From the NCBI RefSeq assembly GCF_013167455.1, contig NZ_CP038328.1: DNA of 64,000 bases; one strand, written 5' to 3'. Positions 54,001 through 57,000 of the stretch are shown one piece after another. The position numbers are program-made. This DNA comes from Escherichia coli O157:H7. Its GTDB lineage: Bacteria; Pseudomonadota; Gammaproteobacteria; Enterobacterales; Enterobacteriaceae. Positions within the stretch are counted from its first letter, which is position 1. Each line of letters starts with the position of its first letter.

Positions 54001-57000
54001 CGGACGTATCTGCAGACGGACCCGATGGCGTGTTGCCGCCGGGCGAGGGTTTGATTTCCGGTGCCTTACCACTGATGAAGGCGGAGGTGCGCCCGGCTGC
54101 GTTCAGAATAGCGGTTGCCAGACGATCCGGAATAATGCTCCTGCGCGCCCATGAACTGAAATGTGTCGGGCGGTTTGATGATACCTGGTTTCCATTCGTT
54201 CTCGATGCCGCACCGTAATATCCTGATGCCGGAATATCCGGATCTTCTGCCGGCGCGTTAGTGGCGGTATTGACGCCGTTACCGTCTGTCATGAAGGGCA
54301 CAAAATAAACGCCCTCACTCTCCCTGTTTTTATACCCGCCGTACACGGTGTCGTACTGGGTAGCGTATGTATTTTTCCAGTAATACGTCGTATCACCACA
54401 AATCCACGGCACATCTGCAGCACTGCCACCATGGCACTGCGCGTTAAACACGGAGAGGTCAGCACGAAACTGTGTCAGCATGGCTGTAAACAGCGCAGGT
54501 TGCTGTGCGTGGGTGGCGGCGCTCATGTCAAACTCTCCCTGCATCCAGCACACCGCCAGCAACACATTTTTCGGGTTCTTCTGTAATGCAGCTTTAGTGC
54601 GCGCAATCAGGTCCTGATATAACGGTTTACCCACACCCCAGCGTGCCGAATCCTGGCTGGCCCCCGTGTCCGCACTGAATGTCCCCTCAGCGCCCTGGGT
54701 GAATGCAGAACCACCACGACAGCATGGTACCAGCAGGATCCCCGCGTTATTCGGGATATACGGAAGCAGTTTTTTGGCAATATGTAAGCCCTGGCCGACA
54801 CAGCCGTACTGCCCTTTGCTCAGGTCTGCCTTCGGATGATTCAGCGTACTCATATCCTGCACATCATGCAGGCAGTGGTCGGCCGGAATGATGTCGTTAT
54901 ACGTACAACTCTCTCCACCCGGAGTTACCGTGCTGCGGCGCGCCAGCTGTTTAATGCGCGGATCCGGAGCATCGTAAGAATCCGGTAACGGAAGCCCTTC
55001 ACCGTAGGCCATGCCGTTGGACTGTCCGGCAAGCACAACCACGTAGAACCAGTCCGGCTTAGATGAAGGGCCGACCTGTGGATCTCCTTCAATAGCCACC
55101 GCCTGCATCAGTGTGTACGGCGTAATGGCAACCGGTCCGCCGTATGGCTGCCAGCCCTCTTTCAGTTTGTGTGTCAGCTTTTCCGCAAGGTCTGACGGCG
55201 ACGCCGCCCTGACAACATCATAGTGTTTAAATGCCATGAATCCTCCCGGCCGGGATAATATTGTGAGTAAAATGAGGAGCGGGCTGAAGTCCGGAAGTTA
55301 CAGGACAATGGCAGAAGAGAGACAACAGCCCGCAATACGAAAAAGGCCGCGCTATTGCGCAGAGTGATTACTGTCGGATATTATTCGCCAGCTGAAATAT
55401 TACTTCACGTTTTGTTGTTTATTCCTTGCCGCCCGCGTCTCCCTGCGCGGGCTTTTTTTGTCCATAAGAAAGCCCCTCCGGAGAGGGGCTGGAGAGTGGC
55501 GCTATGTGCCATTGCATGGTGCCGGGTGCCTCCCGGTGAATTCAGTACCAGCACCTGAATCCGCGATTATCCCATATACCTACTCGCTGATTGCCCCTCC
55601 GCACAGGGGGATTCACCATGCCAGTTTCTTTTAACAAACTCCCCGCAAACCAGACAACAGTCAACCGCCTGAATTGTGAGACATTTAAAAAAAAGGCCCG
55701 CAAAAGCGAGCCAGGGAAAATAAGTGTGGCGCGTTGTACTGGATTCGAACCAGTGACCGATTGCTTAGAAGGCAATTGCTCTGTCCGGCTGAGCTAACAA
55801 CGCAGGATACAGATAATGGACCGCCTTCGGGGACCCGAACTCCGCGCAACCAGCTTCGAAAGCTGGCGCTCTTTCCTGATGAGCTAATGGCGGTATGTGA
55901 TGGTGGCCCTTGCTGGATTTGAACCAGCGACCTGGCGATTATGAGTCGCTCGCTCTCACCACTGAGCTAAAGGGCTGGGTCAAAAAATAATAATCAGATG
56001 AAAATCAATAATCAAGCCCTTGCCTGGATACATATCTGTCTGGCGGGAAGCCATAATAGCGGTGAAATACAGAAATAAAGTAGGACCAGCTTGAATAACC
56101 GCATTTTTCTGCTACAGCCTGTCCATATCCATGCCGGGAACATAACATATTGACAGCAACACGCATCCGCTCTTCCAGCAACAAGCGACTGAACATGTGC
56201 CCTTCATTTTTCAGTTTTATCTTTAACAAACTCTCACTCATATGCAGGCGTAACGCAATCGCACCAAGCGTCCAGCTTGCTGATATATCTGTCTGAATTA
56301 TCGCCCTGACTTTGGCACTTATACTGGATAAACATCCACTTAAAAATAATAATATCCGTTCATCTGATTCAAACAGCGACAGGCATGCCATCATAAGAAA
56401 CATATCCGTGGTATCTCCGGAAAATCTCTGGCTGGTAATTAAAGCCTCAGCCAACGCAGGGTTGTTGGGTTCCAGTGACAGATAAAGCGGAACGTCAGTC
56501 AGATGAGTTCTTGTCAGCTTATGCTGAATTTCCAGATATTGACTTACTATGGAATGGTTTATATCGAAAATTTTAACTTTGCCATAATGCATAAGGAAAA
56601 GCGCCCTGATGCATTTGGTGGCCAGAACGACTGAGCCGGGCTTAAGTGACAACGTATCCTTTTCAAGAAAAATATTAATTGGGGAGCAAACCATGATAAC
56701 TGAACAGACAACAACCATTATAATTTTACTTTCATTAGCAATTGGTTAGTTCAATTATAGCCCCAAAAGGTAAATTATCATCAACACATAAGCAAAGGAC
56801 TGACAGGTGCCGCTAACACCCACCAGCCGCCCATTTACCACAAATAAAAAAGCCTTCAGGACTGAAGGCGTCTGTAACAACCGAACTGATAGTCTGCCAG
56901 ACCCGCATAACCAGCTGGGTCAGTATTAACTGGCAGCGCTCGCGTGAAAGGTACGTATTCTGCGCAATCTCCCCGACCGTCGCCGGTTCGGTGACGCTTA

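Follow-up and report, generated by a model that had tools for sequence, protein, structure and literature searches.

A probably decaying tRNA-Arg(UCG) gene and an empty cargo slot in the late tRNA module of Sp4, a defective prophage of Escherichia coli O157:H7

Results

We analyzed a stretch of 64,000 nucleotides from Escherichia coli O157:H7 (NCBI RefSeq assembly GCF_013167455.1, contig NZ_CP038328.1), termed the window, in which three tRNA genes lie close together upstream of nanS-p, a phage sialate O-acetylesterase gene. ARAGORN places all three on the minus strand, with the CAU anticodon gene at 55976..55901, Arg(UCG) at 55893..55817 and Arg(UCU) at 55803..55727. The DNA around them is 99.99% identical to prophage Sp4 of E. 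coli O157:H7 Sakai (99.986% over 7 kb, with 58895..51895 aligned to NC_002695.2 1176500-1183500), in which the trio is annotated as ileZ1, argN1 and argO1. An 801-nt region here is 100% identical to many O157:H7 chromosomes, and 665 records match it at 99% identity or more. The late genes on the minus strand are arranged in the order RusA, Q (58680..58309), a CAAX-protease-like gene, a gene for an AraC-type helix-turn-helix (HTH) protein, the trio and nanS-p. The latter (53387..55237, minus strand) encodes 616 amino acids with the Pfam domains DUF1737, SASA and DUF6645 and is annotated as a SASA family esterase. Sp4 is visibly defective: IS629 lies next to nanS-p, the lysis cassette is inverted and ISEc8 is inserted further on. 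The locus is the late-region tRNA module of this defective lambdoid prophage. Its tRNA trio, the absence of stx and its intergenic RNAs have been documented before. What may be new is modest, namely that among the three phage tRNAs only the UCG-Arg one is widely decaying, and, possibly, that the decayed argN allele is confined to stx-less prophages. We put the probability of our overall reading, a late tRNA module with a partly decayed argN1, a mildly affected ileZ1, an empty cargo slot and a conserved pair of small RNAs (sRNAs), at about 80%.

The original prediction had ascribed the order Ile(CAU)-Arg(UCG)-Arg(UCU) to Stx phages, and alignment with such a phage bears this out. Phage 933W and VT2-Sakai (Sp5) carry ileZ, argN and argO between Q and nanS-p, arranged in order, spacing and orientation as in Sp4, in which the CAU, UCG and UCU genes are 7-13 nt apart on the late strand, and window positions 55979..55686 are 93% identical over 296 nt to the three 933W genes plus the terminator that follows them. 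The position of the tRNA promoter and the sRNA region before nanS-p are also shared with 933W (whose promoter and terminator features were taken from its GenBank annotation, as a literature search on ileZ, argN and argO yielded no usable paper). The two loci differ upstream, where Sp4 has the AraC-type gene and 933W has Q, pR' and tR' directly, and in that 933W carries stx2AB and Sp4 does not. The differences within the trio are unevenly distributed: there is one in ileZ (G1 in 933W, A1 in the window) and one in argO, but argN differs at 8 of its 77 positions.

The argN1 gene (55817..55893, minus strand) is a damaged allele with an A6·A67 mismatch in the acceptor stem, an A52·C62 mismatch in the T stem, U32 in the anticodon loop and a T loop that reads UUCGGGU, so that G58 replaces A58. 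Its intact homologues have no stem mismatches, and the 933W argN forms a perfect cloverleaf with A58. The original prediction had named the acceptor and T-stem mismatches and G58, all of which are present, and in addition C1, which is no defect since it pairs normally with G72 and is found in every argN allele, including that of 933W. In searches with the Rfam tRNA model, all three genes pass the threshold of 29 bits, scoring 66.3 (ileZ1), 42.9 (argN1) and 70.1 bits (argO1) with E-values of 5e-13, 1.4e-06 and 5e-14, respectively. Thus, the covariance scoring that had been proposed as a check does not single out argN1 by the threshold, but it places it 12-15 bits below the intact alleles (54.8 bits in 933W, 54.8-58 overall). 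More decayed argN relatives score 37.5 bits or fall below the Rfam threshold. The cloverleaf of argN1 is also 8 kcal/mol weaker than that of the 933W gene (-20.0 versus -28.3 kcal/mol), and the earlier description of the UCG tRNA as sub-standard is upheld on both counts. We conclude that argN1 is a sub-standard and probably decaying copy.

The ileZ1 gene (55901..55976, minus strand) is of the tRNA-Ile2 type: it combines a CAU anticodon with an ileX-like body and keeps the pairs C4-G69 and C5-G68, which E. coli TilS requires (PMC1635315). It is identical to K-12 ileX at 68 of 76 positions, including the anticodon loop CUCAUAA; both have C4-G69, C5-G68 and A73, C6-G67 of ileX is replaced by the compensated pair U6-A67, and G27·U43 by A27·C43. 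The predicted A1·C72 mismatch is present and corresponds to a single G-to-A change relative to 933W. The additional A27·C43 opposition had gone unmentioned and is common to the 933W ileZ. The A1 allele scores 66.3 bits compared to 72.5 for the G1 allele, and its cloverleaf energy is -25.0 compared to -29.0 kcal/mol, and A1·C72 probably destabilizes the tRNA mildly. In essentially all loci that we sampled from IMG/VR ileZ has G1, and A1 is restricted to Sp4-type sequences and a single suspect contig. Moreover, G1 is present in three loci that share both the upstream sequence of the window and its type of argN. Judged by these alignments, A1·C72 is therefore one recent mutation of the Sp4 lineage. 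From its sequence determinants, ileZ1 is expected to be modified by TilS to the lysidine form that reads AUA.

The argO1 gene (55727..55803, minus strand; 70.1 bits) is canonical, as had been stated: its cloverleaf is paired throughout and the invariant bases are present. The argO family is highly conserved and shows a compensatory T-stem change, and the allele of the window is the modal one, being identical in 44 of 99 sampled loci. At position 37 the window and most loci have A, and 933W (L003, 1796-1872) and Sakai Sp5 have G; for a tRNA that decodes codons starting with A, A37 would be expected, and by this measure the Stx2-phage copy is the odd one.

To place argN1 among its relatives we sampled IMG/VR twice, taking about 120 loci with the 3' end of ileZ as anchor and about 120 with that of argO, and scored structural damage on 99 and 116 loci, respectively. 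argN is damaged in 58/99 and 54/116 loci, whereas the comparison tRNAs are damaged in only 12-14% (argO in 14/99 ileZ-anchored loci, ileZ in 14/116 argO-anchored ones). The corresponding Fisher p-values of 7e-11 and 9e-9 are indicative only, since the loci are not independent. The damage to argN ranges from single mismatches up to deletions and replaced anticodon arms that take the gene below the Rfam threshold. The window-type allele, defined by A6·A67, A52·C62 and G58, accounts for 13 of the 99 and 23 of the 116 loci (about 36/215), nearly always at empty cargo slots, and is linked to stx in none. Stx-linked loci mostly have an intact argN (12 of 16 in the argO-anchored sample, for example).

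The deviations of argN1 are not conserved across functional phages, as the original prediction required: the window-type allele was absent from all 26 stx-linked loci sampled and from all 264 deposited phage records with an argN homologue, of which the best is 92% identical. Megablast of argN1 against phages gave no match, and a more sensitive blastn search confirmed that the absence of the allele is genuine. The argN of phage Nil3 is an intermediate that has A52·C62 alone and scores 50.4 bits. Across 25 intact argN alleles, stem variation is limited to C or U opposite G. The window-type family has five polymorphic sites, of which two bring further damage (G50A disrupts a pair, C74U the CCA end) and three affect loops or the variable region; pairing is restored by none.

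These data have to be weighed against the possibility that all three tRNAs are fully functional, with the deviations of argN1 and ileZ1 being neutral or tolerated in a working rare-codon set. Several points speak for it and count against decay. All three genes exceed the Rfam threshold and are called by ARAGORN and by the Prokaryotic Genome Annotation Pipeline (PGAP), argN1 as a tRNA-Arg. A20 and C35, which are identity elements for arginyl-tRNA synthetase, are intact in argN1 (D-loop AUCAGGAAA, anticodon UCG), as are the two TilS pairs of ileZ1. Furthermore, A·C oppositions are able to form protonated wobble pairs. The window-type allele is common in prophages, making up 13-20% of the sampled loci, and occurs behind five or more different upstream modules, which puts the boundaries of recombination at the conserved tRNA genes; it has persisted and spread, and could thus be tolerated or useful. 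The sampled loci are also phylogenetically non-independent, with enterohaemorrhagic E. coli (EHEC) genomes over-represented, so that the p-values overstate the evidence. Finally, hundreds of O157:H7 genomes have stably inherited the allele; however, clonal inheritance within O157:H7 says nothing of selection. Full function is nevertheless unlikely in our view, as argN1 combines three independent changes at structurally critical positions, all of them uncompensated, with the losses in covariance score and folding energy relative to intact alleles, with a family in which further changes add damage without restoring pairing, and with its absence from the phage records and stx-linked loci.

One IMG/VR contig, L123, appeared to be an Stx2 phage with an A1 ileZ, but it is a probable assembly chimera and was not used. 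It joins an Sp4-type RusA-Q-HTH-ileZ(A1) segment to a 933W-type argN-argO-stx2AB segment. The 3.2 kb left of the ileZ/argN spacer contain 5 differences and the 220 nt right of it contain 21, and the breakpoint lies exactly at the end of the ileZ repeat. The arrangement was found in none of 5,426 complete E. coli genomes, the best full-length match being 95%. Short-read assemblies can fuse different prophages at identical tRNA repeats.

The middle position of the trio is variable in its own right. In many loci (among them L006, L004, L023 and L037) the acceptor stem CCGCCAY/RTGGCGG is constant and the anticodon varies between UCG, UCU and UUU (Lys). Other loci have in this place an 80/81-nt or a 66-nt form that no tRNA finder accepts, and about 25 loci carry nearly identical copies of the 80/81-nt form.

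The middle position could be a hypervariable tRNA cassette of lambdoid prophages, built on the constant CCGCCAY...RTGGCGG acceptor/T scaffold, and not just a dying gene, with the window-type allele maintained in a non-decoding role, for example as a decoy, a signal for processing or a tRNA that resists nucleases; we consider this a long shot. We also give little credence to the related proposal that the deviations themselves are adaptive, either because altered bases of the anticodon loop or T loop allow escape from a tRNA-targeting nuclease or because a degenerate tRNA is kept as a processing signal for RNase P or RNase E. Phage tRNAs can evade anticodon nucleases, C32U sits in the anticodon loop and G58 recurs on several allele backgrounds. 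The plasticity of the middle position, where one acceptor scaffold carries different anticodons or gives way to conserved non-tRNA forms, would fit as well. However, most of the argN1 changes fall in the acceptor stem, the T stem or the T loop rather than at known nuclease target sites, the allele has no linked nuclease or partner gene, and uncompensated mismatches together with indels are the product of relaxed constraint.

The gap between argO1 and nanS-p (55726..55238, 489 nt) contains no toxin gene, in line with the original prediction, and the search for remnants that had been suggested found none: comparison with the stx2 cassette of 933W, using blastn-short with a word size of 7 and tblastn with Stx2A and Stx2B at E-values up to 100, gave only chance matches with E of at least 0.49. 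The late strand of the gap has no ATG-started open reading frame (ORF) of 40 amino acids or more. Contrary to what had been assumed, the gap is for the most part not the place where stxAB sits. About 445 nt of it are homologous to the 933W sequence between stxB and nanS-p, that is, downstream of stxB, and the stx slot itself is point-like. The left block of homology to 933W ends at 55686 and the right one starts at 55683, which in 933W is 42 nt after the stxB stop codon, so that the 1332-bp stx2AB cassette of 933W is replaced in the window by a 2-nt junction (55684..55685, minus strand) that marks an empty cargo, or 'moron', slot. The locus is not that of an Stx-converting prophage, as neither stxA nor stxB lies between the tRNA terminator and the STnc100 region described below. 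The absence of stx would then simply mean that the slot after the terminator is unoccupied, with the rest of the gap made up of an sRNA pair that also lies downstream of stxB in Stx2 phages. In other prophages the slot holds stx2AB or, in loci such as L041, L061 and L056, different cargo, examples being a 143-amino acid TerB-domain protein (Pfam E-value 3e-16) and a 108-amino acid protein without a Pfam match.

An empty slot could also be a scar, if Sp4 were a former Stx phage from which stxAB has been deleted. The sequences on both sides of the junction are indeed homologous to the flanks of the 933W stx2 cassette, and modules do recombine here, with mosaic breakpoints at the tRNA genes. We nonetheless regard a deletion as improbable. 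The flanks abut within 2 nt without any remnant or repeat, and the empty state is the commonest one (38/99 and 54/116 sampled loci). The unrelated cargo found in the same slot elsewhere fits a cargo insertion site better, and a loss of stx by recombination with an stx-less relative would be indistinguishable from never having had it.

The gap had been described as containing only hairpins and no ORF. The latter holds within the limits given above, but the hairpins are those of the tRNA terminator and of two known sRNAs. The first is an STnc100-family sRNA (55460..55650, minus strand; RF02076, 138 bits versus a threshold of 47, E-value 4e-31), whose match covers the full model (positions 1-206) and includes a terminator hairpin at 55490..55471. 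It corresponds to EcOnc05 of Sakai Sp4: the EcOnc05 northern probe exactly matches 55558-55592 on the plus strand, so that the RNA lies on the minus strand and within the STnc100 match. The Sp4 listing of Tree et al., 2014 comprises EcOnc05 (plus strand, about 222 nt in northern blots) and EcOnc08/EcOnc21 (minus strand, about 271 nt), together with peaks from Hfq cross-linking and analysis of cDNA (CRAC) (their Table S2), and the authors report convergent sRNA pairs at a "moron insertion site" in several prophages, Sp3, Sp4 and Sp5 among them. The approximately 222-nt band and the Hfq-CRAC peak show that the STnc100 RNA is expressed as a discrete species. In Stx2 phages, STnc100 lies 75 nt downstream of stx2B (PMC12370729) and overlaps the Hfq-bound sRNA EcOnc27 (PMC12711010). 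The EcOnc27/STnc100 of Sp5 lies upstream of nanS-p on the same strand, as in Sp4. The 933W copy of STnc100 scores 207.7 bits; the Sp4 copy is about 71% identical to it and shorter in its central part.

The second sRNA is the convergent, antisense and Hfq-bound EcOnc08/EcOnc21, which we place at about 55294..55459 on the plus strand by transferring the Table S2 coordinates through the Sakai alignment; the transferred coordinates span about 55294-55457. Its 3' end coincides with a plus-strand terminator found in a terminator scan (stem 55431-55452, followed by T7). At its full length of about 271 nt (about 55189-55459) it would start inside nanS-p and cover the start codon at 55237 and the ribosome-binding site, which suggests antisense control of nanS-p. 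The single promoter-like site on the plus strand (55231-55259) would give an RNA shorter than about 271 nt. In 933W, AsxR ends back to back with an STnc100-type RNA, just as EcOnc08/21 does in Sp4. However, AsxR and AgvB are 51-60 nt long, and their terminator and body differ from those of EcOnc08/21. Moreover, neither AsxR (RF02703; 88.1 bits in 933W) nor AgvB (RF02702), models with a conserved 42-nt 3' region, has a match between 50000 and 60000 at an E-value of 1 or below. The nanS-p leader contains a further terminator-like hairpin (55338..55362, minus strand; terminator scan) in a block that is 92% identical to 933W.

We anchored the sRNAs by the EcOnc05 probe sequence because the published coordinates of AsxR in Sp5 are shifted by 139-140 nt relative to NC_002695.2. 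The offset is about 0 at the Sp4 tRNA locus and about 140 nt at Sp5; our guess is that it goes back to the correction of a 141-bp repeat at the right end of Sp4, in tccP2.

Discussion

The signals around the trio suggest how it may be expressed. A promoter scan found a sigma-70-like match (TTGATT-17-TATTAT; 55987..56015, minus strand) 11 nt before ileZ1, at a position equivalent to that of the putative tRNA promoter annotated in 933W as 'pT'. A TTGnnn-17-TATTAT motif lies about 10 nt upstream of ileZ in all of the unrelated upstream sequence families. Behind argO1 the terminator scan found an intrinsic terminator (GGCTCGC-TTTT-GCGGGCC followed by T8; 55687..55712, minus strand), which is conserved in 933W and labeled there 'terminator upstream of the stx genes'. 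The trio thus has consensus matches for a promoter of its own (56015..55987) and for a downstream terminator (55712..55687), which supports the idea of an autonomous tRNA operon that would also be read through by the Q-antiterminated late transcript. Most likely, the sigma-70 promoter drives a three-tRNA operon that ends at the terminator after argO1, and after induction Q-modified RNA polymerase would read from pR' through into the sRNA region and nanS-p. The putative promoter overlaps the 3' end of the AraC-type HTH gene (56005-56718, minus strand), which is AT-rich and stops 28 nt before ileZ1. Its ORF is 237 amino acids long in the window and 195 in the Sakai annotation, and its ATA use of 29 per 1000 codons is about ten times that of neighbouring core genes.

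Codon usage gives the three tRNAs different weight. Per 1000 codons, Sp4 genes use ATA 8.0 times compared to 2.7 in adjacent core genes (3.0x), AGA 6.4 compared to 1.3 (4.9x) and AGG 4.5 compared to 0.5 (9x), whereas the enrichment is 1.5x for CGA (4.9 compared to 3.3) and 2.2x for CGG (13.0 compared to 5.9). The stx2AB genes are extreme for ATA (36.6) and AGA (14.6) and ordinary for CGA and CGG. The demand is thus strongest for the codons of ileZ and argO and weakest for those of argN, and the decay specific to argN matches it. By this account ileZ1, carrying a lysidine introduced by TilS, would decode AUA and argO1 would decode AGA and AGG, both serving codons enriched in the prophage, if they are modified and charged as expected. 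With its two stem mismatches and the lost T54-A58 partner, argN1 (UCG, for CGA and CGG) would be a partly decayed copy and at best a weak tRNA.

Such a copy may persist because it is dispensable and redundant, as the argN2 gene of Sp5 in the same genome is intact and identical to the 933W argN in Sakai. This, and the inability of Sp4 to complete a lytic cycle, would relax selection on argN1. Genome annotations give every argN copy as an ordinary tRNA-Arg, and so they probably overstate how many working rare-codon tRNAs EHEC genomes have.

Neighbouring features

Directly 3' of nanS-p lies a partial IS629 (52193-53265) that carries an ALIL frameshift pseudoknot (52814-52930), and after it pchA (51716-52030, plus strand), which regulates the LEE (locus of enterocyte effacement). 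Past the pchA/IS629 point, the lysis genes of Sakai Sp4 are in inverted orientation with respect to the late promoter. A tRNA-Ser(UGA) gene, serT (24418-24505, plus strand), marks where Sp4 ends on the right. A hok/sok module (60701-60875, minus strand) lies in the early region of the prophage, and a match to the cspA-type thermoregulator (5170-5592, minus strand) covers cspG, in the core genome.

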